A stretch of DNA of 64,000 bases. Origin: Gammaproteobacteria bacterium (lineage in GTDB: Bacteria > Pseudomonadota > Gammaproteobacteria > JAKEHO01). The stretch covers positions 10,559 to 74,558 of the forward strand of contig JAPUIX010000170.1 in assembly GCA_027296625.1 (NCBI GenBank), given 5' to 3'. Shown in pieces: positions 28,741 to 47,460 of the stretch (within the stretch, counting starts at the first letter, position 1; each line of letters opens with the position of its first letter). The notes under the pieces are model-generated. The model had not been told where the DNA came from. It worked only from the letters and a program-made list of their open reading frames with translations, and searched no databases. Made by a program: the position numbers and the translations under genes.

Positions 28741-29361
28741 TCAGTTTGCCGCAATTTTATCGTACTCGGCTGTCTTCTCCCTTATCTCGGCTAAGAGCGC
28801 ATCAAAACCCTGATCTCTTATGACGGCGGTGTATTCGGCGCGCTTCAATGACAGGTCGCTTACGCCGTTGGCAATCACATTGAGGATGTACCACCGCCCG
28901 TTTTTTTCGTGGAGGAGATAATCGAGATGCACGATCTCTCCGTCCGCCTTCACTAGTTCGGTTCTTATAACGACACGCCCGCTCTCTAGTCGTTCTACAT
29001 TCGCGGGCCGGAATGTTTCTTCGTTGTATTCATCGAATAGGGAGGCCGCTGCAGCGATACCGTAACCAATGAAGGTCTTTATGAATTCGGTCTTTTGGTC
29101 ACGATCGAGTGTCTTCCAGTACCTGCCCAAGACCAGTCTGCTGATGTACGGCACGTCGAAGCTTGAGATGAAAACCGGCTTAAGCTGCTCATAACGTCCG
29201 CTATAGCCGAGCTGGTCAGCATTCTGCATGACATCGAGTAGGGTGGACTGGAACCGGTCGACGAGCTCACTGGCCCCCGACTCAGGAGCAGCCTTCGATG
29301 ATGCGGATACCAACGACATCGAGAGAAGCACAACCAGCAGAGCATTGAACACGTGTCTCAT
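28741..29361 (-). CDS. hpnM: hopanoid-associated MlaC/Ttg2D-family periplasmic lipid-binding protein
   Basis: Signal peptide, MlaC-like FDVPYISRLVLGRYW block, and location beside hpnB and hpnH. Confidence 0.65.
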   Translation of the reverse strand: MRHVFNALLVVLLSMSLVSASSKAAPESGASELVDRFQSTLLDVMQNADQLGYSGRYEQLKPVFISSFDVPYISRLVLGRYWKTLDRDQKTEFIKTFIGYGIAAAASLFDEYNEETFRPANVERLESGRVVIRTELVKADGEIVHLDYLLHEKNGRWYILNVIANGVSDLSLKRAEYTAVIRDQGFDALLAEIREKTAEYDKIAAN

Positions 29362-29485
29362 CGTCGCATTAACACCCTGATTCCATCATATTGATTGGGA
29401 CCTTAGGCAACATAGCATATTTTTTTTTGGTGTGCCGGGATCTGTCTAAGATCCCGATTCCGGCTTATTTGCTCGCGTGGCCAAG

Positions 29486-30613: not shown

Positions 30614-31744
30614 TCACGCGACCTGCCGATTCGTGCAGGTCTTGCTTGACTCGCGTTCTGCGATCAATATCGGTTGGGGTAAGGGGGCGTCGTTGTAGGT
30701 GACCAGAGGCTCTGGAGCCAAGGGCCCTTCAGTACGTGGCCCACGAAGAGCGATCCATAGTGCCTTCAAGGGGCTAGCAAAAGTATCGTTGACCGCTGTA
30801 GGTTCATAGCCGCAGTGGACCATGCAATCTGCGCACTTCGGGTTGCGGCCCGTGCCGTAGTGTTCCCAGTCCGTCTCTTCCATTAGTTTCTCAAACGTTG
30901 GCGCATAGCCTTCGCCTACCAGTAAGTAACACGGCTTCTGCCAGCCAAATACATTGCGCGTCGGGTTGCCCCATGGTGTGCACTGATAGGCTTGGTTACC
31001 CGCAAGAAAATCGAGATACAGGGATGACTGGTTGAAACGCCATTTGCGACCCTTGCCAAGCCGGAAGATATCGCGAAAAAGTTGGTTGCTGGTCTTTCGT
31101 TTTAGAAACACATCCTGTTTTGGCGCACGCTCGTAACTATAACCAGGTGAAATGGTTACGCCTTCCACCCCGAGACCCATAGCGAAGTCAAGAAATTCTG
31201 CGACCTCGTCAGCTTGTTCCCTTTGAAATAGCGTGCAGTTTATGGTCACTCGAAAGCCTTTTTCACTTACCTTTCTAATTGCTTCTATAACCTTGTCAAA
31301 AACGCCTTCTCGACATACAGATGTGTCGTGCCGTTCGCGATTGCCATCGAGATGGATCGAGAACGTGAGATAAGGAGACGGGGTGTAGTCATCTATGCGC
31401 TTCTCAAGAAGCAACGCGTTAGTGCAGAGATAGACGAATTTTTTGCGCTTAATGCAACCTTCTACAATCTTAGGCATCTCCTTGTGAATAAGTGGTTCAC
31501 CGCCGGGAATCGACACAATAGGGGCACCGCACTCATCCACAGCGTCCATACATTCTTCATAGCTCAGACGCTTGTTCAGGATCTCGTCGGGGTAATCGAT
31601 CTTTCCACAACCTGCGCATGCGAGATTGCAGCGAAAAAGAGGTTCAAGCATAAGCACTAGGGGATAGCGCTTTACCCCACGGAGCTTTTGCCAAACGATG
31701 TATTTGCCTACACGATACTGCTGGAATAATGGGACACTCATCAC
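30614..31744 (-). CDS. hpnH: adenosyl-hopene transferase (radical SAM)
   Basis: YPLVLMLEPLFRCNLACAGCGKIDYP (CxxxCxxC) with full-length HpnH-like sequence. Confidence 0.9.
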   Translation of the reverse strand: MMSVPLFQQYRVGKYIVWQKLRGVKRYPLVLMLEPLFRCNLACAGCGKIDYPDEILNKRLSYEECMDAVDECGAPIVSIPGGEPLIHKEMPKIVEGCIKRKKFVYLCTNALLLEKRIDDYTPSPYLTFSIHLDGNRERHDTSVCREGVFDKVIEAIRKVSEKGFRVTINCTLFQREQADEVAEFLDFAMGLGVEGVTISPGYSYERAPKQDVFLKRKTSNQLFRDIFRLGKGRKWRFNQSSLYLDFLAGNQAYQCTPWGNPTRNVFGWQKPCYLLVGEGYAPTFEKLMEETDWEHYGTGRNPKCADCMVHCGYEPTAVNDTFASPLKALWIALRGPRTEGPLAPEPLVTYNDAPLPQPILIAERESSKTCTNRQVA

Positions 31745-31972
31745 TTCCCCCTCGTTTTTCGGGAAACTACCACCTCATCGTCCGACCGGTGGGAGAATTT
31801 CTTAGTGGCGGAGTAAGATAATGTAAGTACACGGAAATGTACAGGCTGTCTATTAGGCTGGGATCCGTCCCGACGGGCCAAAGTAGGGGTGCCGGGGATA
31901 ACCAGCCACATTTTCTTGCAACCGCTGGGTGGCCTATCCATAATGTGGGCTCGATTGCGCCCAGTTGAGCCT

Positions 31973-33886
31973 ATGAGCAACGACCATCAGTATAAGATGC
32001 TTGATTCAATCAAGGGTCCCGAGGATCTCCGTCGCCTTTCTGAATCTGAACTCGTGCCTCTGGCGGATGAACTGCGTAATTTTCTGCTCGCGTCTGTAAG
32101 CCAAAGTGGCGGGCATTTTGCTGCCGGCCTCGGTACAGTAGAGCTGACCATTGCGTTGCACTATGTCTTTAATACCCCGGAGGATCGGCTGGTCTGGGAT
32201 GTAGGCCACCAAGCTTATCCGCATAAGGTTTTGACGGGACGGCGCGAGCGTATGCACACAATACGGAAGTGGGGAGGACTGGCCCCATTTCCAAAACGAA
32301 ACGAAAGCCACTTCGATACTTTTGGCACCGGCCATTCCAGCACCTCGATTAGCGCTGCCTTGGGCATGGCCATTGCGGCGGCACGTCTAGATGTTGACCG
32401 CAAAGTCGTGGCCGTAATCGGCGATGGCGGTATGACTGCCGGAATGGCCTTTGAGGCGCTCAACCATGCTGGCGATCTTGGAACGAACTTGCTCGTCGTC
32501 CTCAATGACAATGACATGTCGATCTCTCCTAATGTTGGCGCGCTGTCTAATTACTTCGCGAAAGTGCTGTCAGGCAAACTCTACTCGACTGTCCGTGAAG
32601 GCAGTAAGAAAGCGCTAGCCAAGATGCCTTCTGTTTGGGAACTCGCGCGGCGGGCCGAAGAGCATTTCAAAGGCTTAATTATTCCAGGGACGCTATTTGA
32701 AGAGTTGGGATTCAATTATATCGGTCCGATCGATGGGCACGATTTGCCTACGCTTGTGACCACACTGAAGAATCTCAGTTCCCTGAAAGGACCGCAAATG
32801 CTTCACGTTGTCACACGCAAGGGTAAAGGTTACGCGCCGGCTGAAGCGGATCCCGTTAAATATCATGGCGTCACTCCATTTGATCCGAAAACGGGTATTG
32901 TCCCCTCAAAGTCCAAGTCTAAGCCCACGTACAGCAAGATCTTTGGTGATTGGATTTGCGATATGGCGCGAATTGATGAGCGTTTAGTGGCGATTACGCC
33001 CGCCATGCGCGAGGGTTCGGGGCTGGTAAGATTCGCTAAAGAATTTCCGGAGCGTTACTTTGATGTCGGGATTGCCGAACAGCATAGTGTGACCGTTGCA
33101 GCCGGGATGGTGTGTGACGGCCTGAAGCCCGTCGTGGCCATTTATTCAACGTTCCTGCAGCGCGCTTACGATCAGGTCATACATGACATCATAAATCAGA
33201 AGCTGCCTGTCATGTTTGCGATCGACCGGGCGGGCCTGGTCGGTGCCGATGGGCCAACCCACAACGGCAGCTTTGATCTGACGTATCTACGTTGCTTGCC
33301 TGACATGGTGGTCATGGCGCCTTCCGATGAGAACGAGTGTCGCCAGATGCTGTACACGGCCTTTCTGCTGGACCAGCCGAGTGCGGTACGCTATCCTCGC
33401 GGTAGCGGCCCGGGCGCTTCTGTGGAGTGGGATATGACGGCGCTACCCATCGGCAAGGCGGAGTTACGTCGCGAGGGCAGCGGCATTGCGATCCTTGCCT
33501 TCGGCACGATGGTGAGTCCCGCACTCGAAGTTGCCGAGGAACTGGATGCGACGGTGGTCAACATGCGGTTTGTCAAGCCGCTGGACGAAGACATGATCTT
33601 GAACATGACCGCGCGGCATGATTTGTTGGTGACGATAGAAGAAAATGTCATAGCAGGGGGCGCCGGTAGCGGGGTTAACGAGTGCCTAGCCGCCCACGGT
33701 GCCTGCCATCCGGTGATTAACTATGGTCTACCCGATCGCCTCATCCAGCACGGATCACGTGACGATATGTTGGCGAATGCGGAACTGACCTCCGAGGCGA
33801 TCTTACGTTTCATACAGGATTGTGTGCATAAAGACGAAAAACGCCGTCCGGCACGAAGCGCCAGAGTTGCCCGCTTCGTCCGCTAG
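31973..33886 (+). CDS. dxs: 1-deoxy-D-xylulose-5-phosphate synthase
   Basis: [13 protein letters not shown] start, [16 protein letters not shown] motif [15 protein letters not shown]. Divergent from hpnH. Confidence 0.95.
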
Positions 33887-33908: not shown

Positions 33909-35033
33909 TCAATCGGCGGCGGCATCGACTGCGCCCGGCTTTCCAAGAGGCCCCCCATGTTCTGCCATCGCGCATTCAACGGCCGAGAGAAAACGTCCCA
34001 TGTCCTCGTGGGTGATTGCACCCATCGGGGAGACGCGGAATATACGGCGAGCGAATTCTCCTTGGCCAGCATAGACGACAAAACCGCGCTCTTTTAAGGC
34101 ATCGTGAAAAGTGTCGTAGTCTATTCCTTCGGGGAGATAAAAGGCATTTAGGACAACCGATGAGACCTTTTCAGGTAAGAGGGGGACTATTCCTAAGTCC
34201 TCAAGGCCGCTGCGGACCGTCTCTGCGAGCGTTTTGTACCTAGCGTGTCTGGCGCGCCATCCCCCTTCGTCTTCGAACTCGCCGAGCGCCTCGGCCAGTG
34301 CATAGAACGCCTGTACCGATTGGGTGTAGGGTGTGTCGCCTGTATCCTGTGCCCGGCAGTAGCGTTCCAGATCGAGATAGAGGCTGCGCCGGGGGCCATT
34401 CACACCAAGCAACGCATTCCGGCGCACGATCACAAACGACGCGCCCGGGACGCCGTGGAGGCATTTGTTCGCTGTTGCCGCGCAGCCTGCGATATCCAAC
34501 GCCTCGAAGTCCAACGCCTCCGCGCCAAAGCTGCTGACGGCATCCACAAGTAATGGGATGCCCCGCCCGCGACACAATTCGCCTATCGCGGTGAGGTTAT
34601 TCAACCGCCCCGTGGTTGTCTCGTGATGGACGACCGCCACGTGCGTGAACCCGTTGGTCTCGGCGAGGCCTCGCGAAAGCGCAGCAAGGTCAATGCTCTC
34701 GCCCCACGGATGGGCGAAGCGCATGTGGTCAATCTGATGGATCGAAGCGATCTCACAAAGCCGCTCACCGTAGACACCGTTCTCCAGGATCAGGACCCGG
34801 CCCTCTTGTGGAACCAAGCTCGTTATCATCGCCTCCATTGCCGCCGTGCCGGAGCCTGTTAAGAGGACTGTTGCAAATGCCTGGGGCGAGAGCCCATAGA
34901 CCCGCAGCAGGGCTTGGCGGATCTGGTCCTGCAATGCGAAGAACTCCGATTCCCGGTGAGACAGATCAGGACGCTGTAAGGCCTGGCGAACACGCTCGCT
35001 GAGGTTCACTGGGCCCGGTGTCAACAGGATCAT
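33909..35033 (-). CDS. phnW: 2-aminoethylphosphonate--pyruvate transaminase (class V, PhnW/AepZ type)
   Basis: LLTPGPVNLS, VHHETTTGRLN, SSFG, and ANKCLHGVPGASFVI (PLP lysine). ATGA overlap with the phosphonopyruvate decarboxylase stop at 35030-35033. Confidence 0.8.
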   Translation of the reverse strand: MILLTPGPVNLSERVRQALQRPDLSHRESEFFALQDQIRQALLRVYGLSPQAFATVLLTGSGTAAMEAMITSLVPQEGRVLILENGVYGERLCEIASIHQIDHMRFAHPWGESIDLAALSRGLAETNGFTHVAVVHHETTTGRLNNLTAIGELCRGRGIPLLVDAVSSFGAEALDFEALDIAGCAATANKCLHGVPGASFVIVRRNALLGVNGPRRSLYLDLERYCRAQDTGDTPYTQSVQAFYALAEALGEFEDEGGWRARHARYKTLAETVRSGLEDLGIVPLLPEKVSSVVLNAFYLPEGIDYDTFHDALKERGFVVYAGQGEFARRIFRVSPMGAITHEDMGRFLSAVECAMAEHGGPLGKPGAVDAAAD

Positions 35034-36217
35034 GCCCGGCGCTGGGATGGCTGGGTTGCACTGCGGATATGGCTCATCAGGCGCTGGCAAACGGCATCGG
35101 GCGAAAGGGCCGGCCGTGGCAGGTCCTTCGGCCTGCCTGTCTGGATCTTGAGGTGCCCAAATCGAGGTCCGTCTCCTGCATCTTCAGCAAGCAGTCGATC
35201 GACCAGCGCTAAATCATCGCCGTCCATGGCCAGTGTGTAACCGCAGGCCAGCGCCACGTCGGCAAAGGACACGCTAGCGGAAACGGTGGCCTGCGCCCCG
35301 GTCGAGTCGTGTGCATGGTTGTCCAGTACCAAGTGCGTTAGATTCGGACCACCGTAGGCCCCGATGGTGGCGAAGTTGCCCATGCGCATGAGTGCCGCAC
35401 CATCGCCGTCAATCACGACGACCCTCATATCTGGGCGCGCCATGGCGAGCCCGAGACCCAAAGAGGAGGCACAACCCATCGATCCGACCATGTAGATGTG
35501 GTTGCTTCGATCTGCCAGGGCAAAGAGCTCCCGACCGGTATAACCGGTTGTTGCAATGAGCACCGTGTCGTGTTCCGGCGTGAGCTCGATGACGCGCTCT
35601 AAGACCTGACTGCGTGTGAGAAGCTCGCCAGCTCTTCGCTTAAAAAACCGGTGCCGTCGCCTCTTCGGCGCCTCTTTCGGGGTGATGGCCGTTTTCCGGT
35701 TTAGGTGGTGGGGTCCGACCGTGCCCTTGCGCATCACCAGCGCATAGGGCCTGCGCTCGGAGGACGTGTACGCCTCAACGCGACTCAGCACTGGTTCGAT
35801 CTGTTCCGCATCGGTAGGAAAAAACTCCCAGGGCACTGCCATCGTTTCGAAAAGGTTACCTGTGATCCGCCCCATCAACTCGTGCTGCGGCTCATCCTCG
35901 CGGTCGGGATCACCCCGCAGTGTGCAGATGATGAGCACCGGTATGCGAAACACATGGGAAAGCGAAGTCAGGGGGTTAATCGCGTTACCCAGCCCGGAGT
36001 TCTGCATCATGACCACGGCTTGTTGGCCGCCGATGACGGCACCAGCTGAGGCGGCGAGGGCATCGCCCTCATTGGACGATGACACATAGGTAAGGCTGTC
36101 GTCGTCGATGACATAGTTGATGAAGGGTGTAAGGAAGGAACAGGGGACGCCGGCGTACCATTGGTAGCCACAACGCCGTGCGGATTCGACGAATTGCTCA
36201 GCACTAATCACGGTCAC
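35030..36217 (-). CDS. phosphonopyruvate decarboxylase (TPP-dependent)
   Basis: [15 protein letters not shown]-terminus and TPP-binding [18 protein letters not shown] overlap with the PEP mutase stop. Confidence 0.85.
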
Positions 36218-37899
36218 CGATTCCTTGGGCGATCGTATGTTAAGGTCCCATGTGTGAAATCGCCCGCACGGTCGATATCGTCCAGTGTGTTCACGTCAAG
36301 CCAGTGCCCATTGATGTAATGCACTGTGATTGTGTTGCCGTTTTGAACAAGATGGTTCAAAAGATCTGGCATGCCCATGCGGTTGAAGTGAGGATGCTGC
36401 ATTAGTTTGTCAAGTGCCTTGGTTAACCATTGTCTACCCAGTCTGCGTGTACGCAGCATGCCGATCCAGCGGCCATTTGGTTGCCCGAAGTCATCGTTTT
36501 TGGTCTTTTCTGATACATGCAGGAGTTCGACGTCCTGGCTAAACAACGAACGATCATCTGGCGCTGAGCAATAGGCAAAATCCGGTGAACCGGAGAGGGG
36601 AGTGCTAGGCGTTGCCGAATCGACGACTGCAACGATTTCACCTTGGCAATCCAGTAAGTCCCTTAAGATGTAGCTACGAAACAGGAGATCTCCATACAGG
36701 ATCAGCATGTCGTCATGGAATGACCCTTGAGCACAGGCCAGCGAGGCTAACTCACCCGTGGATTCATGGTCGGGATTAATCATCACCTTGACGCCTTTGA
36801 TATTAGTGATAGCCTCCGCCTTGTAACCGGCCACAATAGCTATATCGTTAATCTCTTGTTTCTTGAATTCACTTACGAGTCGACTGAGAAGTGGCTGGCC
36901 TCCGATCGGCAGCATACCCTTGGGCCGATCATGTGTCAGTCCCGCCAACTCTTGCCCCCGCGTTGCCGCAAGAACAATTGCATGGGTCTGGTGTTCATTT
37001 GGCCTCGCGTAACGCTGTGCTGCGTCGAGCAATTCGTCGGCACCCTGCAGGCGGAATAGTTCTTGGACTGGGGCGATGCGATCTTCGATATTGACTAGAG
37101 TCTGACTTGACTGGATCTCCTGAGCGATGGACGACATGCTCGACACAGAAGTGCGTATCATTTGATTTGCCCAGATCACAAGACTAATTTTTTCTTTGCG
37201 AAAGACATCTGTTGGCGTACTACAATAGGTTGTGGGCACAATGATGAGTGGTGATCGGCCGGACCACTCTCGTGTAAACGTCAGCACTTCATCGGGACGT
37301 GGCAGCCTGCTGTGAATTAAAATCGCGTCGGCCCCTGCTTTATAATAGGCGCTGGCCCGACGTAGCGCTTCGCTCATATCCCAACCGGTAATTAACGCCT
37401 CGACTCTCGCGACGATTCTGAAATCCGGATCGGTCTGGCTATCCTTCCCTGCCTTGATCTTGCCGCAAAATTCATCCACATTTGCTAAGGGTTGGCGGTT
37501 TGGGTTGATGAAACTGTTCGATTTTGGGAACAATTTGTCTTCAATACAAACACCGGCTACTCCCCTTTGTTCAAGTTTTCTTACAAGCCGACGCATATTG
37601 TTGAAGTCGCCGTAGCCGGTATCCCCATCAAGTAAGATTGGGATCCGCGTTGCGTCTGCCATAAACTCAAGCATTTCCACTACCTGAGTCCAGCTTGCCT
37701 CATTGTTGTCCCGTACGCCGAATTGAGCAGAGATGGCCAAGCCACTGGCCCAGATCCCCTTAAAACCGGCTTCCTCCACAATTCGGGCACTGATTCCGTT
37801 ATGCGCCTCCATGATAAATTCGAGTTCCGGCGATTCAAGCAATGCTCGTAACTGAGCACATTTGCTTGGTGAGCAGGCGGGTGTTTGGGGCTTTGCCAT
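36214..37899 (-). CDS. phosphoenolpyruvate phosphomutase fused to a C-terminal nucleotidyltransferase domain
   Basis: Residues 1-295 or so form an isocitrate-lyase/PEP-mutase fold with the PepM-diagnostic EDK-x5-NS ([11 protein letters not shown]). Residues 310-561 or so form an NTP-transferase fold ([32 protein letters not shown]). Confidence 0.85.
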
Positions 37900-38652
37900 T
37901 TAGTGAGCCGAATTCATGATCTTGGGGAGTATGTGGCGTTGAGCGCGGCCGATATCGGCTGGAAAGTCGATCTCGATCCAGGGCAAGCCGGTAATGTCTT
38001 CGTAGGCAAATTCGTGGGGAGAAGCAAGTAATACATCCCGAATGACTTCCTCGTAGGGTTCCTCATCGAGGCCTGCACTGGCATAGTATTCAGCCCTGGC
38101 GGCTATGCGGTTAGCAATGTCTCTGGAAAAGCGGAAGAATCCAACGGCTTCGCCGCACATATCAAATTCGAGCGTTTCATCAATCTGCTTGCGAAACTCG
38201 ACCAGGCGCTTATTGTGGAGACACAACTTAACGGGTTCGTCTCCAGGCTCAAAATCTCGATCTAACAAGAAACAATTGTGCCATCGGCTATCCATCAGCC
38301 GCCGAATCAACCGATGATCGTATAGTACATCGGCATCGGTTAATAGCGCACCGTCGCCCGAGGCCAAGTGTTCCCGTACAACCCAGAGACTGATAACGCT
38401 GCCTTTTCTGTAGTCTGGATTGTGGATGACGCTGACAAAGCCATCGGGCGCAACCTTTTGTATCTCGTCTTCAATTAATTCGTGCCGATAGCCGACCGCG
38501 ATGATGACATGCTCGACGCCACACTGGCGAAGCGTTTCCAAGTGTCGAGCCAAAAGTGTGGCACCATCGAATTTGATCAGGCATTTTGGGCCATCGTGCA
38601 CTTCTTTACCAAGACGCTGGCCGATCCCGGCTGCGAGGATTATCGCCTTCAT
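37900..38652 (-). CDS. stand-alone nucleotidyltransferase (LicC/PntC-like cytidylyltransferase family)
   Basis: MKAIILAAGIGQRLG...PKCLIKF signature. Its TAA stop is immediately followed by the PepM ATG. Confidence 0.7.
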   Translation of the reverse strand: MKAIILAAGIGQRLGKEVHDGPKCLIKFDGATLLARHLETLRQCGVEHVIIAVGYRHELIEDEIQKVAPDGFVSVIHNPDYRKGSVISLWVVREHLASGDGALLTDADVLYDHRLIRRLMDSRWHNCFLLDRDFEPGDEPVKLCLHNKRLVEFRKQIDETLEFDMCGEAVGFFRFSRDIANRIAARAEYYASAGLDEEPYEEVIRDVLLASPHEFAYEDITGLPWIEIDFPADIGRAQRHILPKIMNSAH

Positions 38653-38741
38653 GTCGTGTCACACACAGCGACCAGGGGTATTAATGCGGAATAAAAACGA
38701 GATGAATTGCTCGAAAACGTGTCTCGCATTGGGGCCTTTGC

Positions 38742-39749
38742 TTAGTTGTCTGCACTTGGGGACGTATCTTTGGACGGCTTTTCACGGCGTAGCCACAGAC
38801 GCTTCCCCTCCGCAATTTGCCAGGATAGCAGGCCCGGCAATCCTAACAGTAGTTCGCGTACCCGCTTTGTCAATGACAGTGCCAGTGAGATATCAGGTGT
38901 GATCCCGAGCAAGCTGCCAAGAAAAATGTAACCGCCTTCCTGCACGCCCAGAGCCCCCGGGATTGCGAACCCGGCTGCTCGGATGGCTTGACCAAGGCTT
39001 TCCAGCAACAGCGCTTCCATCAATGATACCGGTCTGCCGAGGAAATACATTGCCAGCCAAACTTCGCCCACACCGAGAAACCAGCCTAACAATCGCCAGA
39101 TGCAAACGGTGAGAATCGTTCGGTCTTGTCGATAGAGGTCGACGATCGCGCTATCGAGTGCCTTCGGATCCCCAAGCGACGATATCCAGTCGCGATCACC
39201 GACGACTACTTTCAATACGCGTACCAGGACTGTAAAGAGACCCCGCTGTTGCGCGTAGAAAAATCCCCAGGTTGCAAGTAATGAGATGAGTAGTGCGCCA
39301 AGTACAGCGTTGACAGCCAGCTGCTCACTAAATATTGTCAGCAACATACCAAGACCAACGCCCGTGAATATGATTTGAGTTAAGATCGCTGCGGTGAGAT
39401 CCACCACGACGCTGGCACCTGCCGTAACACCTGGGACACCAAAGTGCATAAGCAGTCGTGCCTTGAGCACATCGCCCCCTATCTGGGCGGCCGGTAGCAA
39501 GCCGTTGACTGATTCACCCACCCAACGAGCCCATAGCAGCCTGTGAAACCGTGGCCGTGTCGGTTCAATCAGGCGGCTCCATGCGACCGCATCCGCCCAC
39601 ATCGGCACCAGGTGAAAGAGTGTCACGACAAGAAGCCCCCAGCCGGCAACCGCAAGCGTAGCAGCAACCTCTGACACACCCTGGTAGCTGATAATGCCAA
39701 CGAATAGTGCAAGTCCCGCAATCCAGGCGATATAGGCGGTGATTTTCAC
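38742..39749 (-). CDS. hpnL: HpnL-type membrane protein (UPF0104 / lysyl-PG-synthase TM, flippase-like family)
   Basis: 335 aa with about 8 TM helices and the LLPAAQIGGDVLKARLL block. Lies between hpnA and the phosphonate genes. Confidence 0.55.
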   Translation of the reverse strand: MKITAYIAWIAGLALFVGIISYQGVSEVAATLAVAGWGLLVVTLFHLVPMWADAVAWSRLIEPTRPRFHRLLWARWVGESVNGLLPAAQIGGDVLKARLLMHFGVPGVTAGASVVVDLTAAILTQIIFTGVGLGMLLTIFSEQLAVNAVLGALLISLLATWGFFYAQQRGLFTVLVRVLKVVVGDRDWISSLGDPKALDSAIVDLYRQDRTILTVCIWRLLGWFLGVGEVWLAMYFLGRPVSLMEALLLESLGQAIRAAGFAIPGALGVQEGGYIFLGSLLGITPDISLALSLTKRVRELLLGLPGLLSWQIAEGKRLWLRREKPSKDTSPSADN

Positions 39750-39955
39750 GGATCGTTATCCAACGTTAAGACACGAGCAGAAACAATGGTGGCGTGCTTT
39801 CGATTGACACATTGGACCTTAGCTGCTCTTAGTATGCTTACTCTGACTCCAGCAACTTAAAATACCATGCTCGCGGTTTTTCTTATCCAGTGCAAACCGC
39901 TGGGCAGTATACGTAGCCGTGATTCGACTTATGAGTGATGTGGCCGGTGATGTAA

Positions 39956-40945
39956 TCAGCAGTAACCGTGACTGCGAAACCATTCCATGGCGTCTCGCAG
40001 GGCTTCTCTGATCGGTCGTGGTTGATACCCGAGCTCCCGCTGTGCTTTATCACTGCTGAAGAACATCATTTTTCTAGACATCCGCACACCATCAACTGTC
40101 ACGCGCGGCTCGCTGCCGCCTGTTACCTTTGCCCATGCTTCCGAGAAATATGCGATGGGCAACAATGCAGTATGGGGCAACCGGATTCTGGGCGGGGCGT
40201 GTCCAGTCAACGAGGCGATTTCGTGCAGGATTTCTTTAAGCGTCATATTGTATCCGCCCAAGATGTAACGCTCGCCTGTTTTCCCGTGCTGGTAGGCCAA
40301 GAGATGGCCCGCAGCAACATCATCGACATGCGCGAGGTTAAGTCCTGTATCAACATAGGCCGGCATACGATCGGTTACTGCATCCAGAATCATTCGACCT
40401 GTCGGCGTTGGTTTGATGTCCCTCGGTCCTACAGGCGCCGATGGATTTACAACGACCGCCGGCAGCCCCTCATCTTTCACTAATCGATGCACCTCCGCCT
40501 CAGCCAGAAACTTAGAGCGTTTGTAGTGACCAATCATGTCTTCGACAGACACAGGTGTTGTTTCATCGGCGGGACTGCCATCTGGATTGAGACCTAAAGT
40601 TGCCACGCTGCTCGTGTACACAATTCGCTCGATGCCGGCGTTGAGGGCGGCAAGCATGACGTTGCGTGTGCCAGTGACGTTCGCCTCATACAATTCTTCT
40701 GGCCTGCTTGCCCAGAGGCGGTAGTCAGCTGCCACATGGAACAGGACGGTGCATGTTAAAAGGGCACGCTCTAGTGATGGGCGATCGGTGAGATCGCCTT
40801 CCGCCACATCGATGCGCAGACCGTTAAGATTTCTCAGATCGCTGGTGGGGCGTACGAGTGCTCGCACCTGGTGCCCGGCATCTGACAGGGCGCGTACGAC
40901 GGCTGAGCCGACAAAACCGGTTGCTCCCGTGATTAGGGTTGTCAT
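39956..40945 (-). CDS. hpnA: hopanoid-associated NAD-dependent sugar epimerase/reductase
   Basis: MTTLITGATGFVGSAVVRAL Rossmann fold and YxxxK (YKRSK). The start lies 1 nt after the hpnN stop. Confidence 0.8.
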   Translation of the reverse strand: MTTLITGATGFVGSAVVRALSDAGHQVRALVRPTSDLRNLNGLRIDVAEGDLTDRPSLERALLTCTVLFHVAADYRLWASRPEELYEANVTGTRNVMLAALNAGIERIVYTSSVATLGLNPDGSPADETTPVSVEDMIGHYKRSKFLAEAEVHRLVKDEGLPAVVVNPSAPVGPRDIKPTPTGRMILDAVTDRMPAYVDTGLNLAHVDDVAAGHLLAYQHGKTGERYILGGYNMTLKEILHEIASLTGHAPPRIRLPHTALLPIAYFSEAWAKVTGGSEPRVTVDGVRMSRKMMFFSSDKAQRELGYQPRPIREALRDAMEWFRSHGYC

Positions 40946-40946
40946 G

Positions 40947-43616
40947 CTACAGACTCGTGGGTTCAGATACGGCCCCGGTGCGGCCGGTAGCGAGCAGAGC
41001 AGGAAGTACCACGAGCGTGCAGACAAGGGTGAAGGCTACGCCTAACGCAAGCAGTTTTCCCATGCTGGCCATTCCTTGATGAGGCGCAAAGGCCAGGTTG
41101 CTAAAGCCAACAATGGTGGTCAAGGCACTGAAGAATACGGCACGCGCTGAGCTGGTCGCAAGTAACACGCCGTCTTTGGGCGGTGCAGTGCGGAAACGGT
41201 GCACCATGTGGATACCGCTATCCACGCCGATCCCCAAAAGCAGCGGCAGCGCGATGATATTGGCGAAATTAAACGGTATATCAAGCACCACGCTCGCCGC
41301 GGCGGTGAAGACGCCTGCGAGTAGGAGCGGGAGCAGGACGAAAACTGCATCAATCTTTCTATCCAATAGCAGGACCAGTAATAACGCGATGACAAAAAGC
41401 GCAGATAGAAATGCCTGCTGGAACGCGGACACGACCGCATCCCCGGCTTCCAGATTGATAACCGGTGGTCCGGTAAAGTCCGGAGCGATTGTCCGCAATT
41501 CGCTAACAAATCGTCTCAGAGCGCCATTGTCCTCTAAGTTCTCCCTAGGAAATACCTCAATTAGATACTGTCCACCGGGTGTAACCCAGCGCTCAATGAA
41601 TTCCAGTGGCAGATCCCGGAAAGCCACGGGCTTAGCACGGAGTGCCTCTTGCAATGCCTGTAAGCGTCCGGGAAGGGTGCTGACAAGACTTTCCTGTAAT
41701 CGCGCCAAGAGTTGAGTACGTGCATCCGCGTCTAGGTCTTCTAACCGTTCGAAAAAGCGCTGCAGGGTGTCATTGAGTGATTTCGCTTGACGGGTGATGG
41801 ATTCGTCAGGGCGGGCCTCAATGAGCTTATTGAGCGTGTGATGAAACTCGCGTAATGCTTCTGCTTGCTCGATAGCACTGGGTAACTCTTGGTTGTCTGT
41901 GGGCTGCAGTGTGGGACCAAGAATCAGCGTCATATCATCTATAAGGAGCAATTTCTCATCCTGATCCGTCGGAATGAAACTATCCACTGTGACAACCTTA
42001 TCGACGACCGACAGTTTTTTGAGTTTATCTTTGGTGCGTTTCGCATCACGATGATTCTTTGCCAACAACACACTCCGCCAAGGAGACGTGTCTTTGTCTT
42101 TCAACAACTCTCGATAGGTGATGACTGACTCGGTCTCGGGATCCTTAAGGTTCAACGTATTGGGATCGAATGTCACATATGGAAGTAAAAATAGAGACCC
42201 CAGGCCCAAGAATAAGGTGATGCTCACGATTATCCGCGCGTGCCTTACGGGGAAATTCAACAGTTTGGGATGTGCTGATGAGAACGTACGCCGTGGCTGT
42301 TGCGGCGCGAGTGAGAGCCGCGTAAGGCTCAGCAAGGCGGGGAGTAAACTAAGACACAAACCTAAGCTGATGAACATGCCTGTGCCTGCGATCAAGCCGA
42401 GTTCCGCCACGCCGACATAGCCTGTGGGAATGAAGGCGTAGAACCCAACCGCCGTAGTCAGCGCAGCAAGCAGCAGCGCGCTGCCGATCTGGCGTACCAC
42501 GGTATGCAATGCGGCGGCATGATCCCCGTGTTCTTGCAATAGCCCTCGGTAGCGGAGATTGAAGTGGATGCAGAAATCGACCCCTAAACTGGGATAGAGC
42601 ACGGCAAATGCGATGGATATGAGGTTTAATTCGCCGACAGCCACTGTCGCAAAGCCGGCTGTATAGATAAGGCCACAGATAAGCGTGTACAGCGTGATCA
42701 GTACAAGTCGCATTGAGCCGAGGCCAATCCACAGTACGATGGTAATCATGGCAAGCGCCAGAACGGCCGCCACTGCAGTCGCGCGGATTGCACTCATCAG
42801 CTCCTCGTGAGCTAGAGGTGTATCCCCAGTCAGGCGTACGCGGATGCCGTTCTCCGGGGTCATTCCCAAGTCTGCACTGAGGGCCCGTATGGCATTGACT
42901 GCCGGCTCTGCAGGGAGCAGTTGGCTGAAATCGAGCTCAGGTTGAACGATGATGAATTGCCGGTATTCTCTTGGGTCAGTGTCCCCCCCTGTCATCACGT
43001 CTTGCCAGGATAATCGATATCGTCGTGTTTGAAGTGCTGCATCCAAGGCATCGCGAATGCGCTCGTATACCGTACCAAGTTCAACGTGTATGCCATCAAC
43101 TAGCGCGCGGGTTGCATCATTGAGCATCGAAAACAGGCCACGCAGGCTCTGATCATTACTGAGATTCGAAAGGAACGGTTGTACCATCGCAAGGTTGTCA
43201 GTGAGGTCTTCAAGTTCTGAAGATTCTAAGTACAAGAGCCCATTGGCTCGAAAGAACGACAGCCCATTGCGGTAATAAACGGATTTAAACAGGCCGGATT
43301 CTTGTTTTAGCCGCTCTGTAATTAAGACAGCAGCATCATGGGCCTCGTCCGCCGTGTCCGCATCGACCACAATGAGGATTGTGTCGACCTGTTGGGGGAA
43401 CTCGCGTTTGTACGCCGAGTATGTCTGTCGCCATGGCAGTTCTTCAGCCAGCAACTCGGCAGTATCTGTGTTAATGGCAAGGTGTTCGACCGTGTAGCCT
43501 AAAATGTAGATTGCAGCAACTGTCGCCACCGTCACAACCCAGATCGCCCCGCGCTGGACGCTGTTCACCCAGAAGGTAAGTGCGTCGTTTGCGTATCGGT
43601 GAAGGGGGGCGCGCAT
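40947..43616 (-). CDS. hpnN: RND/MMPL-family hopanoid transporter
   Basis: 889 aa with two 6-TM bundles and two periplasmic loops, HpnN-like throughout. Confidence 0.8.
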   Translation of the reverse strand: MRAPLHRYANDALTFWVNSVQRGAIWVVTVATVAAIYILGYTVEHLAINTDTAELLAEELPWRQTYSAYKREFPQQVDTILIVVDADTADEAHDAAVLITERLKQESGLFKSVYYRNGLSFFRANGLLYLESSELEDLTDNLAMVQPFLSNLSNDQSLRGLFSMLNDATRALVDGIHVELGTVYERIRDALDAALQTRRYRLSWQDVMTGGDTDPREYRQFIIVQPELDFSQLLPAEPAVNAIRALSADLGMTPENGIRVRLTGDTPLAHEELMSAIRATAVAAVLALAMITIVLWIGLGSMRLVLITLYTLICGLIYTAGFATVAVGELNLISIAFAVLYPSLGVDFCIHFNLRYRGLLQEHGDHAAALHTVVRQIGSALLLAALTTAVGFYAFIPTGYVGVAELGLIAGTGMFISLGLCLSLLPALLSLTRLSLAPQQPRRTFSSAHPKLLNFPVRHARIIVSITLFLGLGSLFLLPYVTFDPNTLNLKDPETESVITYRELLKDKDTSPWRSVLLAKNHRDAKRTKDKLKKLSVVDKVVTVDSFIPTDQDEKLLLIDDMTLILGPTLQPTDNQELPSAIEQAEALREFHHTLNKLIEARPDESITRQAKSLNDTLQRFFERLEDLDADARTQLLARLQESLVSTLPGRLQALQEALRAKPVAFRDLPLEFIERWVTPGGQYLIEVFPRENLEDNGALRRFVSELRTIAPDFTGPPVINLEAGDAVVSAFQQAFLSALFVIALLLVLLLDRKIDAVFVLLPLLLAGVFTAAASVVLDIPFNFANIIALPLLLGIGVDSGIHMVHRFRTAPPKDGVLLATSSARAVFFSALTTIVGFSNLAFAPHQGMASMGKLLALGVAFTLVCTLVVLPALLATGRTGAVSEPTSL

Positions 43617-43844: not shown

Positions 43845-44606
43845 TTAAACGCGAAAGACGTAGGTTTTACCCGGTTCTCTCTCGCAATCGGGGGGATAGC
43901 TTCTTCGTTTGTCCGCATAGTAGATGGCCCGGTGTTCACCTTCAGACAAACGGTTGTAAGTAACATACAGAACGCGTCTCGGTTTGTCCGTAAGGTTAGG
44001 ACCCGATCGGTGTGGCGTATAGGAATCAAAGAAGACGGCATCGCCTGGACTCATCGGATATGGAACGTAGCGCACTTCATTGTCGTCTTCCAAAGGATGC
44101 CACTTTTCACCAATGAGGCCCTTTTTGTGGTGGCCTGCAGCCAATTCTAAACAACCATTTTCGGGCGTTGATTCATCGATACTGACAAGCGCGGTAATGT
44201 GGAGCTTTGCATAGGTGTCCCATCCGGCCTGAATGTCCTGGTGAGCCTTGAAGCCATCACCGCCGGACATCTTGAAATTGATCTTATCTTTAAATAGCAC
44301 GGCTGGTTCTCCAAACAGTTCGGAGACGATGCCGAACATCTTGTCCATATTGAACAGTTTCTCGAACCCAGCGTGATACGGGACAAAATCTTCGACCCGC
44401 GAGAGGATACGCTTGTGAGGTTCAAGCTTGCTCTGTTCGAAATACATCATGTATTTACCAGGGACTTCAGGGAAGGACGCCACTTCTTCAGTCCATTGCG
44501 TTATGTTGTGTAACTCCTCAAGCTCACAGAGCCTCCTGATAATCAGGAAGCCATCGCGATCAAAATCATTCAATTGTTTGTCTGATAAGTAGCCACTCTT
44601 TTGCAT
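43845..44606 (-). CDS. phytanoyl-CoA dioxygenase (PhyH)-family Fe(II)/2-oxoglutarate oxygenase
   Basis: 253 aa. FDRDGFLIIRR N-terminus, HxD (KAHQD), and distal His/Arg (YTPHRSGPN). Confidence 0.75.
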   Translation of the reverse strand: MQKSGYLSDKQLNDFDRDGFLIIRRLCELEELHNITQWTEEVASFPEVPGKYMMYFEQSKLEPHKRILSRVEDFVPYHAGFEKLFNMDKMFGIVSELFGEPAVLFKDKINFKMSGGDGFKAHQDIQAGWDTYAKLHITALVSIDESTPENGCLELAAGHHKKGLIGEKWHPLEDDNEVRYVPYPMSPGDAVFFDSYTPHRSGPNLTDKPRRVLYVTYNRLSEGEHRAIYYADKRRSYPPDCEREPGKTYVFRV

Positions 44607-44767: not shown

Positions 44768-45478
44768 CTAAATGTTGAGCAACGAAGGACCTGCAAGGCG
44801 AGCGACTTTGCCTAAAGTCATTTGCGCTTGGCGGAAACAGTTCCCTAGGCGGATAACCGGCAATAACTCTGTGGGGCGTCTCAGGAGCCCGGCAAGGAGC
44901 CTCAGTCGTTGCACCTGGCCATCCTGATCGATTGCCGCGGTGACACAGTCGGGTATCGTGATATCGGCTGTGTCAACGATGGCTCGGATCACGATGCAAG
45001 GGACGCCGGCGCTGCGGGCCGCTTCGGCCACCGCAGCACTTTCCATGTCAGTGGCGACGGCGCTGCTCCGCACGAAGAGAGCCGATTTCTCAGCTGGTGT
45101 TGCCAGTACTTTGGTGCTTTCAATGAGCGTTCCCACCTGGATGCAAAGCTCGTCCTGCAAGCACTTAGAGAGACGCGCGTGCCAATCGGCATCAACAGCG
45201 TATTTTTTATTGTCCTCTGCCAAAATCATTTCCGGTAGCACGAGCGCACCCGGGGACAGATCGCTGGCGAGCCCGCCGGCGCTGCCCCAGCTTGCCAATG
45301 CCGTTGCGCCGAGTGCCAGTAATCGTTCCGCGCCACGGCGCGTTCGCTCAGCGCCTAGGCCAGCGACTTGGACTAAGACATCACCTCCAAGTTTGGCCGG
45401 ATCCCCGGTGGGTATGGGTCGGCCGGTGAGACAGCAGGCCTCGTCGGGCAAGGCCGCGATGACGCCCAGACAGGTCAA
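44768..45478 (-). CDS. hpnG: adenosylhopane nucleosidase (PNP/UDP phosphorylase family)
   Basis: GVIAALPDEA, GLGAERT, and ATDMESAAVA blocks. Immediately downstream of shc. Confidence 0.8.
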   Translation of the reverse strand: MTCLGVIAALPDEACCLTGRPIPTGDPAKLGGDVLVQVAGLGAERTRRGAERLLALGATALASWGSAGGLASDLSPGALVLPEMILAEDNKKYAVDADWHARLSKCLQDELCIQVGTLIESTKVLATPAEKSALFVRSSAVATDMESAAVAEAARSAGVPCIVIRAIVDTADITIPDCVTAAIDQDGQVQRLRLLAGLLRRPTELLPVIRLGNCFRQAQMTLGKVARLAGPSLLNI

Positions 45479-45483
45479 GCTCG

Positions 45484-47460
45484 TTATCGTTGTTTCAGAT
45501 TACGGTAGCGCGCGAGCGCCCAGAGTGGAAAGTACTTGGTATAACCGTGGTATCTCAGGAAAAACACCCGCGGAAAGCCGGGGGCGGTGGAACACGGGTC
45601 ATGCCACAGACCGTCCGCTCCCTGGGTCCGCATAAGGCATTCAACGCCGCGCCGCACAGCGCCTGAGTGCACCTGTCCTGCAGCCATCAGCGCGAGCAGG
45701 GCCCAGGCCGTCTGGAAAGGCGTACTGGCGTGATCCCTGCCGGCCTTGGCAGGATCAAAATAGGTGTCATTGCCCTCACCCCAACCGCCGTCGGGGTGCT
45801 GAACGCTGGTGAGCCACGCTGCAGCACGCTGGATGTAGGGCTCGCGCGGGGAAACGCCCGCGATCTCCAGTGCTGCCAGCACGGACCACGTACCATAGAT
45901 GTAATTGGTTCCCCAGCGGCCGAACCACGAACCGTCGGGCTCCTGTTCTTCCCGCAAGTAGCGGAGCGCCTTATCGCGTGCAGCACGGTGTTCCGGCTTG
46001 TTTGCCAACGACAGCAGAACCAGACAGCGCCCCGTGATGTCGCTGGTCGGCGGGTCTAACAGCGCCCCGTGGTCAGCGAATGGAATGGCATTGAGGTAGT
46101 AGCAGGTATTGTCTGAGTCAAAGGAACCGAAGCCGCCGTTTGCAGACTGCATGCCCGCGGTCCAGTCAGCGGCCCGTTCAATGGCCTCCTGGTAACGGAG
46201 CGGGTCAGCCCGGTGCATGGCCCAGGCGACCATCGGGGTGTCGTCGAGATCCGGGTAATACGTGTTCTGAAATTGAAAGGCCCATCCGCCCCCTTCAAGC
46301 TCCGGATGATTTTCACGCCAGTCCCCTGGTTCATCAGCCAGTTGGTGCTCGGCAAGCCAGTCCAGTGCTTGCGTAAGCTCCTCTGGGGGGTCGCCGGGGG
46401 ACGTTTCTGCCACCGCATAGGCAGCAAGGGCCGTATCCCAGATGGGCGATACACAGGGCTGGCAGTAGGCCGACGTGTCGCCGATGACCAGCAAGTTTCT
46501 AATCGCTTGTTTGGTCTCGACCCGATACGGATGATCCTCGGGGTAGCCCAAGAGTGCGAGCACCTCGTAGGCGTTGACGATGGCGGGAAATATCCCGCCC
46601 AGACCCCCCGTGCCGTTAAGCCGGGCTGTGACCCATGTCTCTGCTCTTTTAATGGCGCGCTTGCGAATCCAGCTTGGGATGAGCGGCTCGAGCGCCCGGG
46701 GCACGCGATCCAAAATGAGAAACACAGAGCCAAGTGCCGAGTTCGCCCGAAAATAGTGCCTCTCTTCAAAAGGTGGTGTGGTGAAGAGTTCCGGAATGTC
46801 CACACCTTTAGGATTCGCGGCCCGTGGCTTCAGGCTGCAAAGGATAGAAAGCGGCACCATGACCGTGCGGGACCAATAGGAAATCTTGCTAATGTGAAAT
46901 GGAGCCCAGCGTGGCAGCAGCATGTGCTCCACCGGGACAAACGGTACACCCCGCCAGGGGATCTGACCAAACAACGCCAACGCAATACGGGTGAAGACGT
47001 TGCTATGGGCGGCACCGCCATGGTCCAATATCGCCTGCTGGGCCTTTTCCATATGCGGTGCGTTGGGATCATCCCCAGCGAGTTTTAAGGCGTAGTACGC
47101 CTTGACCGAACAACTCAAATCAAAGTCAGCATCAAGATAGAGTGGCCAGCCGCCGTGATCGGCCTGATGGGCGCGAAGATAGTTAGCAATCTTACTCTCG
47201 AGCCCCTCATCGACCTCATCCATGAAATGTGTCATTAAGATATATTCGGCAGGTATCGTACAGTCTGCCTCTAGTTCATAACACCAGTAACCTTTGGCGT
47301 GCTGGTGTGCCAACAAAGCATCTCTTGCCCGGGCAACGGCCAAATCCAGCTCGTCCACTGCCGATCTGAAGGCGATTTCAGCCGGGTAGCTGCTCGCCTC
47401 AGCATCAGTGAGTTTATATCGTGGTTGCATCAGCATCGACATCATCCCCTCATTAAGCAC
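45484..47460 (-). CDS. shc: squalene-hopene cyclase
   Basis: DxDD motif (YYPDLDDTPMV), repeated QW motifs, and GGWGE blocks. Confidence 0.95.
   Translation of the reverse strand: MLNEGMMSMLMQPRYKLTDAEASSYPAEIAFRSAVDELDLAVARARDALLAHQHAKGYWCYELEADCTIPAEYILMTHFMDEVDEGLESKIANYLRAHQADHGGWPLYLDADFDLSCSVKAYYALKLAGDDPNAPHMEKAQQAILDHGGAAHSNVFTRIALALFGQIPWRGVPFVPVEHMLLPRWAPFHISKISYWSRTVMVPLSILCSLKPRAANPKGVDIPELFTTPPFEERHYFRANSALGSVFLILDRVPRALEPLIPSWIRKRAIKRAETWVTARLNGTGGLGGIFPAIVNAYEVLALLGYPEDHPYRVETKQAIRNLLVIGDTSAYCQPCVSPIWDTALAAYAVAETSPGDPPEELTQALDWLAEHQLADEPGDWRENHPELEGGGWAFQFQNTYYPDLDDTPMVAWAMHRADPLRYQEAIERAADWTAGMQSANGGFGSFDSDNTCYYLNAIPFADHGALLDPPTSDITGRCLVLLSLANKPEHRAARDKALRYLREEQEPDGSWFGRWGTNYIYGTWSVLAALEIAGVSPREPYIQRAAAWLTSVQHPDGGWGEGNDTYFDPAKAGRDHASTPFQTAWALLALMAAGQVHSGAVRRGVECLMRTQGADGLWHDPCSTAPGFPRVFFLRYHGYTKYFPLWALARYRNLKQR

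Follow-up and report, generated by a model that had tools for sequence, protein, structure and literature searches.

A 64,000-nucleotide stretch of contig JAPUIX010000170.1 (the window), from the Gammaproteobacteria assembly GCA_027296625.1, carries a hopanoid (hpn) operon together with genes for the synthesis and activation of 2-aminoethylphosphonate (AEP). We read the region as a chromosomal hopanoid operon with an integrated head-group module of the Group 1 phosphonolipid family, the product of which would be a membrane lipid, plausibly a C35 hopanoid, that receives an AEP head group, probably 1-hydroxylated, from a cytidine monophosphate (CMP) conjugate; the chances for and against this reading seem to us evenly weighted. 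Eleven consecutive minus-strand genes, from 48726 to 33909, follow the order sqs-shc-hpnG-phyH-hpnN-hpnA-hpnL-NTase-pepM::NTase-ppd-aepZ (NTase, nucleotidyltransferase; Table 1). Such an arrangement is far beyond chance, and the whole of it is syntenic in a metagenome-assembled genome (MAG) whose PepM is 81% identical. Profile matches assign AEP synthesis and nucleotidyl activation to the locus, and its other half is a hopanoid biosynthesis and transport locus in which shc, hpnH, hpnG and hpnN all score above curated cut-offs. Linkage to hpn genes recurs in several lineages, which favors a functional link between the two halves.

A reading of this DNA made from the sequence alone had put the locus forward as a candidate for a new system. 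The module belongs instead to the most abundant known pepM family, the 'Burkholderiales_CDP-OH' family, which is equated with the Group 1 phosphonolipids of Yu et al. and accounts for 318 of 882 neighborhoods (PMC8942020). This family is chemically uncharacterised. Its seven-gene core of Ppm::PntC (Ppm, phosphoenolpyruvate mutase), Ppd, an AEP transaminase (AEPT), a 2-oxoglutarate (2OG)/Fe oxygenase, a second PntC and two 'phospholipid biosynthesis' genes has a 1-hydroxy-AEP lipid as its predicted product; although the family is prevalent and ppm expression has been detected, this lipid has yet to be isolated (PMC8942020). The window holds six of the seven genes (Ppm::PF12804 NTase, Ppd, AEPT, the second PntC-like NTase, the 2OG/Fe oxygenase and the PF03706 protein); the CDP-alcohol phosphotransferase is not among them. 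Its PepM::NT is 61-65% identical to Group 1 members from Cupriavidus and Burkholderia. There are further differences from the core: the window oxygenase is of the PhyH type and three genes away, with hpnN-hpnA-hpnL between, whereas the Burkholderiales and Salinisphaera cores have an adjacent HalD-type oxygenase instead; the window PF03706 protein groups with the HpnL of hpn operons and not with the core type; and the window module does not stand by itself but lies within a hopanoid operon.

The linkage of phosphonate to terpene genes has been noted in passing in three papers, as antiSMASH 'phosphonate-terpene' clusters in Nitrosococcus oceani (PMC7285500), as a 'possible phosphonoterpene' in Nitrosococcus gene cluster family (GCF) 731 (PMC8942020), and in Roseomonas as 'an undiscovered terpene-phosphonate', from the linkage of shc to pepM (PMC8776678). 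These clusters share with the window the association of pepM-ppd-AEPT with squalene synthase and hopene cyclase, a likeness drawn from their published descriptions, which are one-line genome-mining remarks without partner analysis. What is new here is how widely the linkage occurs, with Nostocales and a cultured Salinisphaera among its carriers, the recognition that the family's PF03706 gene is an HpnL, a natural protein that joins HpnL to a CDP-alcohol phosphotransferase domain, and a window lineage without the transferase in its operon. As the sequence-only reading had supposed, the searchable literature yielded no phosphonate-bearing hopanoid.

The mutase of the phosphonate half carries the EDKxxxxxNS motif at amino acid (aa) 120, a motif that reading had also recognised; this ten-residue motif sets PEP mutase apart from the other isocitrate-lyase superfamily proteins, and the protein also exceeds the curated mutase cut-off. 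Its C-terminal PF12804 domain spans aa 307-435 and matches PntC, the AEP cytidylyltransferase, at E 1.7e-5 only. The stand-alone NTase has Treponema denticola PntC (6pd1) as its best solved relative, at E 3e-12 and aligned end to end over residues 2-247, and is by these alignments the better PntC candidate of the two; it also has weak IPCT-like NCBIfam matches. The PhyH-family oxygenase had been listed with the hopanoid genes. Its position between hpnG and hpnN is as described, but it is probably part of the phosphonate module. Against NF052437, a model for methylphosphonate hydroxylase of the PhnY* type, it scores 204 bits (E 3e-60), below the equivalog cut-off of 500 bits, compared with E values of about 1e-9 for other named hydroxylases, and it carries the HxD iron motif as HQD. 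Of the hpnG-hpnN operons compared, 5 of 6 that include the phosphonate genes have PhyH, against 0 of 7 plain operons, and in Nostocales PhyH adjoins NTase-PepM. The protein is probably the module's phosphonate C1-hydroxylase, which would convert AEP to 1-hydroxy-AEP.

The protein encoded between the hopanoid and phosphonate genes, first described as HpnL-like, was correctly placed as to family and is, on its TIGR03476 score, a bona fide HpnL. Its AlphaFold2 model (pLDDT 85, pTM 0.80) retrieved MprF as all five best PDB matches in a fold search (TM-score 0.58-0.62, probability 1.0; next <0.3), and a sequence-only PDB search with HpnL gave no match. Within MprF the model matches the membrane (flippase) region only, and this is the fold that HpnL shares. 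A Cupriavidus protein from the stand-alone seven-gene core scores 349 bits on TIGR03476, on par with the window protein, and so one of the family's two 'phospholipid' genes is an HpnL. When metagenome contigs were searched with an HpnL alignment, 29 of the loci obtained had flanks of at least 2.5 kb to either side, a sample dominated by one Burkholderiales-like clade: a CDP-alcohol phosphotransferase was nearby in 25, an NTase or PepM in 21, and classical hpn genes in 5. The two functions are joined in one natural protein, a 587-aa fusion of HpnL (PF03706) to CDP-OH_P_transf (PF01066) in an alphaproteobacterial MAG (GCA_046759785.1; L164:10001-11764, P0186; L numbers denote compared loci). The fusion gene has hpnA on one side and a PntC-like NTase on the other. 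Its hpn locus further contains PhyH, PagL, a second CDP-OH gene and two MlaC-like genes, and the 14.7 kb retrieved showed no pepM. Among Alphaproteobacteria hpnL is confined to hpnH-positive genomes, according to a 2025 survey (PMC12583986). A 2026 preprint calls the function of HpnL unclear and leaves phosphonates unmentioned.

Gammaproteobacterial MAGs also contain a third, divergent HpnL-like paralogue, 27-33% identical and with 162-170 bits on TIGR03476, below the cut-off. Its gene, which has the reverse orientation, is placed after hpnA and before the second CDP-OH gene, and a similar gene adjoins PhyH in a Chroococcales MAG (L028:6716-7717, L033:6783-7838, L007:7743-8741).

To place the locus in a wider context, we compared the 80 closest of the thousands of homologues of the PepM fusion, one genome per species, and mapped onto these loci the window proteins and six proteins from one cyanobacterial locus, with identity thresholds applied. 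The NTase-PepM::NT-Ppd-AepZ block is nearly universal, with the NTase directly upstream of PepM::NT in 74 of the 80. At least one hpn gene was found in the retrieved DNA of 39 of 80 relatives. When only the 38 loci with at least 9 kb on both sides (full-flank loci) are counted, 22 have an hpn gene and 19 have two or more, by taxon 10 of 16 in Gammaproteobacteria and others and 12 of 17 in Nostocales. The neighborhood survey that the earlier reading had proposed therefore establishes that the linkage is not peculiar to this strain. The median distance from the PepM locus to the nearest hpn gene is 4.4 kb; by chance, an hpn gene is expected in roughly 1-2% of random 20-kb stretches.

The arrangements differ between lineages, which favors selection over the inheritance of one accident. 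In gammaproteobacterial MAGs the order is ...hpnG-phyH-hpnN-CDPOH-hpnA-(hpnL-like)-CDPOH-NT-PepM::NT-Ppd-AepZ, followed by dxs and by hpnH-hpnB-hpnM-mlaA, and the order AepZ, Dxs(-), HpnH is found in many relatives (for example L031, L033, L039, L043, L044, L046, L047, L050, L057, L069 and L076). Nostocales have HpnJ, HpnI, an HpnP-type B12 radical-SAM protein, CDPOH, PhyH, NT, PepM::NT, Ppd, AepZ, HpnH, HpnA and HpnG, with Hpn identities above NCBIfam cut-offs. The cultured Salinisphaera aquimarina (GCA_042643355.1, L165:404-18837) has the entire seven-gene core within a one-strand hpn operon, sqs::shc-hpnG-hpnN-CDPOH-hpnA-DUF2147-HalD-HpnL-NT-PepM::NT-Ppd-AepZ-hpnH-hpnB-hpnM. A neighbor-joining tree of PepM::NT follows taxonomy, and hpn-linked members occur in all three major clades. 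Stand-alone NT-PepM-Ppd-AepZ loci (Nostoc L008, gammaproteobacterial L053) have unrelated housekeeping neighbors and no glycan or LicD-type genes, and so point to no alternative acceptor; one locus around hpnL in Nitrosococcus wardiae has no pepM within 10 kb.

The backbone into which the module is inserted is that of the plain hopanoid operon, shc-hpnG-hpnN-hpnA-hpnL, found in Delta-, Zeta- and Gammaproteobacteria. Gene order is identical and all genes exceed their TIGRFAM cut-offs, but the plain operons, of which the delta- and zetaproteobacterial genomes provide examples free of phosphonate genes, lack both the PhyH gene that separates hpnG from hpnN in the window and the NTase-pepM-ppd-aepZ block downstream of hpnL, where a radical-SAM gene, with or without a TPR gene, often follows instead.

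Several of these loci have further features of their own. S. aquimarina has sqs and shc fused into one protein of 1001 aa and also carries a DUF2147 gene, of the HpnT-type lipocalin kind. In Nostocales a B12-binding radical-SAM protein with DUF4070 lies directly upstream of the CDP-alcohol transferase (L002:5910-8155; also L013, L015, L018, L021, L032 and L040); it has the Pfam architecture of the hopanoid C2-methylase HpnP, and its best NCBIfam match is a weak one to PhpK-type P-methyltransferases; it may methylate either the hopanoid or the phosphonate. The radical-SAM gene of plain hpn operons is conserved and small, about 320-340 aa, directly after hpnL and usually followed by the TPR gene (L085:9930-11643, L088:11035-12713, L167:11089-12045).

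The module had been described as complete. This holds for synthesis and activation of the phosphonate and not for decoration of a lipid: tblastn and a profile of 76 free-standing CDP-alcohol phosphotransferase (PF01066) genes from the relatives detected no such gene in the 64 kb. Relatives encode this enzyme beside hpnA, hpnL or the NTase, and the best match of their free-standing enzymes is to choline/ethanolamine phosphotransferases (CHPT1/CEPT1), weakly, at E 3e-5. In the fullest loci (L015, L018, L028, L033 and L039; for example L028:3966-4553 and 8367-9128) there are two paralogues, one beside hpnA or the HpnP-like gene and the other beside the NTase. The same loci have two NTase domains, and the pairing hints at two successive head-group transfer steps.

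The only window match of the 76-gene profile is the C-terminal domain of an IPCT/DIPPS fusion in a cassette with MIPS (inositol-3-phosphate synthase) and an IMPase-like gene, divergent from sqs. The fusion aligns over its full length with Archaeoglobus fulgidus IPCT/DIPPS (4mnd; E 5e-46), and its CDP-alcohol catalytic motif is intact. The cassette is self-contained in three homologous contexts that are not hpn-linked, two of them with flanking transposases or integrases, and a relative with 92% identity retains its clpP-ispB side and not its hpn side; a similar adjacency, MIPS / NTase / CDP-OH directly after hpnL, occurs in one metagenomic hpn operon only (L085). We considered the fusion as the missing CMP-AEP transferase, or as the source of a second, inositol-phosphate head group; the full-length match and the self-contained cassette make the transferase role unlikely. 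The three genes probably form a di-myo-inositol-phosphate-type solute cassette, in what is presumably a non-thermophilic gammaproteobacterium.

The gene order, strands, junctions and flanks given by the sequence-only reading are borne out by the open reading frames (ORFs) and profile matches, with sqs, shc, hpnG and PhyH upstream and dxs, hpnH, hpnB, hpnM and the MlaA-like gene on the other side; the one correction is that the hpnL-NTase gap is 89 nt and not 90. Its statement that the module is translationally wired into the hpn operon is true of some junctions. The NTase and pepM abut as TAA|ATG, pepM and ppd overlap by 4 nt (GTGA), as do ppd and aepZ (ATGA, with the aepZ ATG at 35033), and the hpnA ATG at 40945 lies 1 nt past the hpnN stop. 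Tight coupling is confined to NTase-pepM-ppd-aepZ and hpnN-hpnA; on either side of hpnL are the 89-nt gap and the 206-nt spacing from hpnA. Counts of promoter and terminator consensus sequences over 33.5-49 kb equal the expectation from shuffled sequence, so the scans are uninformative on co-transcription of hpnL and the NTase. A terminator-like hairpin directly follows aepZ, between the convergent aepZ and dxs genes.

The components resemble several characterised systems. With the Pnt pathway of Treponema denticola and Atopobium rimae (PMC6697681) the locus shares the AEP core and a LicC/MobA-type cytidylyltransferase that yields CMP-AEP, and also the combination of a Ppm-fused and a separate NTase; the Pnt clusters differ in having LicD-like phosphotransferases and glycan genes, where the window and its relatives have CDP-alcohol phosphotransferases, an MprF-like flippase and hopanoid genes. 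The HpnL::CDP-OH_P_transf fusion repeats the logic of MprF, a lysyl-phosphatidylglycerol synthase and flippase in which a head-group-adding enzyme is coupled to a flippase, except that HpnL is without the aminoacyl-tRNA-dependent synthase domain and the head-group chemistry is of the CDP-alcohol type. Kennedy-type choline/ethanolamine phosphotransferases and eukaryotic AEP-lipid synthesis from CMP-AEP likewise transfer a CDP/CMP-activated small head group to a lipid alcohol, whereas the CDP-OH proteins of the relatives are bacterial and only about 200 aa, and the enzyme gene is absent from the window. The only characterised bacterial lipid with the predicted head group is the 1-hydroxy-2-aminoethylphosphonate sphingolipid of Bacteriovorax stolpii (cited in PMC8942020), which has a sphingolipid backbone and a gene cluster in a more distant family (GCF 761).

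These observations can be assembled into a pathway. The PepM domain would convert phosphoenolpyruvate to phosphonopyruvate, and Ppd would decarboxylate this to phosphonoacetaldehyde, pulling the PepM reaction forward; AepZ would then form AEP, which the PhnY*-like PhyH protein would probably hydroxylate at C1. The stand-alone PntC-like NTase, the PepM-fused NTase domain, or both, would produce the CMP conjugate, from which a CDP-alcohol phosphotransferase, in this organism presumably encoded outside the window, would pass the phosphonyl head group to a membrane lipid alcohol. As acceptor, an extended C35 hopanoid of the bacteriohopanetetrol (BHT) type is the most plausible, by way of its terminal hydroxyl; comparative genomics alone marks the C35 hopanoid as the likeliest acceptor, with the chances near balance. 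HpnL, as an MprF-type flippase, would move the zwitterionic lipid across the inner membrane, and HpnN, HpnM and the MlaA-like protein would carry it to the outer membrane. More specifically, and more tentatively, since we hold it at somewhat under an even chance, the product of the Group 1 family as a whole may be a phosphono-hopanoid in which CMP-(1-hydroxy)AEP is joined to the C-35 hydroxyl of BHT, with HpnL flipping the lipid and HpnN, HpnM and HpnS exporting it; that hydroxyl may come from an HpnA-dependent reduction of ribosylhopane. Charged head groups probably do not survive the usual hopanoid work-ups (periodate cleavage, acetylation), and a lipid of this kind would for this reason probably have been missed.

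Several points weigh against the assignment of the phosphonate to a hopanoid. The support for it is genomic inference only. The gaps around hpnL could leave room for promoters and separate transcription. The closest syntenic relative (L001/L003) also has no CDP-alcohol transferase in its operon, and none was found in the retrieved flanks of 48 of the 80 relatives. A neighbor-joining tree places the window HpnL with that of plain hpn operons and not with the core type, so that its position beside the NTase could be a secondary one. The seven-gene core of Burkholderiales stands apart from hpn genes (0 of 5 full-flank loci with an hpn gene), and 16 of the 38 full-flank loci have none. Against a generous 2% null the linkage has p of about 1e-27, a value that overstates the case because the relatives are not phylogenetically independent and may represent perhaps four to six independent arrangements.

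The most serious of the alternatives, though less likely than a hopanoid product, is an ordinary phosphonolipid. Diacylglycerol or some other lipid that is not a hopanoid would then receive the head group from CMP-(hydroxy)AEP to give a phosphonate analogue of phosphatidylethanolamine, and proximity to hpn genes would reflect only envelope remodeling by both, co-regulation and perhaps shared export. The phosphonate field itself predicts a 1-hydroxy-AEP lipid (PMC8942020), diacylglycerol is the acceptor of the closest solved relatives of the CDP-OH enzymes, the core stands alone in Burkholderiales, and MprF, the structural match of HpnL, flips a glycerophospholipid. This explanation leaves unaccounted for the interleaving with side-chain genes (hpnH, hpnA, hpnG, hpnI/J, hpnP-type) in varied arrangements and several phyla, and the flippase-like partner from a family reported only in hpnH-positive genomes; moreover, no such lipid has been characterised from the Group 1 family, for all its prevalence and expression.

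Decoration of a glycan is much less probable. Here AEP would be placed on a polysaccharide, lipid A or core oligosaccharide, as in the phosphonoglycans of Bacteroides and Treponema, with HpnB or another glycosyltransferase supplying the acceptor. The majority of pepM clusters are believed to modify glycans or lipids of the cell surface (PMC6697681), the glycosyltransferase gene hpnB is nearby, and the alphaproteobacterial locus L164 includes PagL. The loci themselves make the proposal unlikely: in every one inspected the module is free of adjacent LicD-type, sulfatase/EptA-type and polysaccharide genes, and what recurs beside it is a CDP-alcohol phosphotransferase together with a lipid-flippase-like protein.

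Slimmer again is the case for accessory genes that act on hopanoid intermediates, with PhyH hydroxylating the side chain to give a pentol or hexol, the NTase activating the ribosylhopane-1-phosphate made by HpnG, and AEP joined otherwise or belonging to a separate product. Isoprenoid lipids are substrates of PhyH enzymes, the stand-alone NTase bears some likeness to NTases for sugar-1-phosphate and inositol-1-phosphate as well, the retrieved DNA of L164 combines PhyH, CDP-OH, HpnL::CDP-OH and NT with no PepM, and the enzyme that converts ribosylhopane to BHT is still unknown. Yet PhyH matches the phosphonate hydroxylase model far better in E value than other named hydroxylases and tracks the phosphonate module among operons, and the NTase keeps its place against pepM even in loci without hpn genes. 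Least credible is incidental juxtaposition of two unrelated neighboring operons, for which the gaps around hpnL and the hpn-free relatives speak, and which is effectively excluded as a product of chance by the low background rate of hpn genes and by recurrence of the linkage in different gene orders in Gammaproteobacteria, Nostocales, Salinisphaera and an alphaproteobacterial MAG and, in the literature, in Roseomonas and Nitrosococcus; a single horizontally spread island is disfavored by the taxon-congruent PepM tree.

The local sequence composition was also examined. GC content is 0.60 over ppd and aepZ (34001-36000) and about 0.52-0.55 in the adjoining hpn genes; glcDEF (24-28 kb) is similarly high, and so the value does not clearly indicate recent transfer. 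The idea of a genomic island was rejected, as there is no island-like GC departure and housekeeping genes lie on the flanks. Outside the locus the window has the look of ordinary chromosome, with lipid A genes, aconitase, yhdP, RNase G, glcDEF, clpP, ispB, obg, murJ and ribF. Rfam and tRNA scans found only a tRNA-Pro, and no riboswitch or other RNA in the locus.

The features are collected in Table 1. Identities of the hpn, PepM, Ppd and AEP-transaminase genes are based on scores above curated hidden Markov model cut-offs, whereas for PhyH, sqs and both NTases the assignment comes from Pfam matches or from scores below the cut-off. The syntenic sqs counterpart in L001/L003 carries PF00494, and the TIGR03466 alignment to hpnA begins at ORF codon 28.

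Table 1. Features of the window, with profile scores in bits (score vs curated cut-off where two values are given)
Feature	Coordinates	Strand	Evidence
aepZ/phnW-type 2-aminoethylphosphonate aminotransferase	33909..35033	-	TIGR03301 417 vs 361
ppd, phosphonopyruvate decarboxylase	35030..36217	-	TIGR03297 432 vs 313
PEP mutase fused to C-terminal PF12804 NTase	36214..37899	-	TIGR02320 381 vs 320; 1m1b 402 bits
Stand-alone MobA/LicC-type NTase, 250 aa	37900..38652	-	PF12804, 65 bits
hpnL	38742..39749	-	TIGR03476 351 vs 196; PF03706 (LPG_synthase_TM) 99 bits
hpnA, SDR / 3-beta-HSD-like 'hopanoid-associated sugar epimerase'	39956..40945	-	TIGR03466 514 vs 368
hpnN, RND/MMPL hopanoid transporter	40947..43616	-	TIGR03480 1015 vs 752
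PhyH-family Fe(II)/2-oxoglutarate oxygenase	43845..44606	-	PF05721, 100 bits
hpnG, hopanoid-associated phosphorylase	44768..45478	-	TIGR03468 188.7 vs 187.1
shc, squalene-hopene cyclase	45484..47460	-	TIGR01507 833 vs 431; SQHop_cyclase_N and _C domains
sqs, SQS_PSY-family squalene synthase	47599..48726	-	TIGR01559 121.6 bits (cut-off 287, below); HpnD 78 bits
Terminator-like hairpin + T-run	33847..33865	-	8-bp stem, 5 GC pairs, tail ending TTTTT; consensus match only
dxs	31889..33886	+	TIGR00204 909 bits; convergent with operon
hpnH-hpnB-hpnM-mlaA-like (hpnS)	27787..31744	-	HpnH 567 (TIGR03470), HpnB 396, HpnM 192, all above cut-off; MlaA 114 bits
MIPS, IMPase-like, IPCT/DIPPS-fusion cassette	48889..52253	+	
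IPCT/DIPPS fusion	50886..52253	+	4mnd, E 5e-46
tRNA-Pro	54441..54517		tRNA scan
YhdP-family protein, 1306 aa	18101..22021	-	
DegT-type aminotransferase and GFO/IDH/MocA oxidoreductase, with Kdo kinase, lpxI, lpxB, lpxA	2449..4583; 6672..11726	- (first interval)	

In the flanking hpn group, hpnH would act in side-chain initiation and hpnB is a predicted glycosyltransferase, and HpnM and the MlaA-like protein are putative periplasmic and outer-membrane hopanoid carriers; transport by HpnM and HpnS is the hypothesis of bioRxiv 10.1101/2025.07.29.667474. About 6 kb from the MlaA-like/hpnM end lies the YhdP-family gene, which encodes a putative intermembrane lipid transporter. Elsewhere in the window, the DegT-type aminotransferase and GFO/IDH/MocA oxidoreductase beside the lipid A genes form a GnnB/GnnA-like pair, as for GlcNAc3N-type lipid A, and in Nitrosococcus wardiae (L163) a DegT/GFO/lpxB/lpxA set is no more than 7 kb from hpnL.

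The locus ties together two parallel unsolved problems, namely the product of the commonest pepM family, and the roles of hpnA, hpnB and hpnL, still listed as genes of unknown function, together with the enzyme that converts ribosylhopane to BHT, also unknown (2025 survey, PMC12583986). They are tied because the family's PF03706 gene is an HpnL, the CDP-alcohol transferase lies beside hpnA and hpnN, and the module is found inside the hopanoid operon of S. aquimarina. This cultured species is an obvious model organism for the lipid chemistry. If the acceptor is diacylglycerol, the loci would still give Group 1 phosphonolipids their first good model organisms, along with partner genes. If it is a hopanoid, the product would be a new lipid class, a zwitterionic and phosphatase-resistant hopanoid of Burkholderiales, many Gammaproteobacteria, Salinisphaera and Nostocales, which would bear on outer-membrane biology and the interpretation of hopanoid biomarkers, and on phosphorus cycling, in that a recalcitrant C-P pool would be tied to a geologically persistent lipid.

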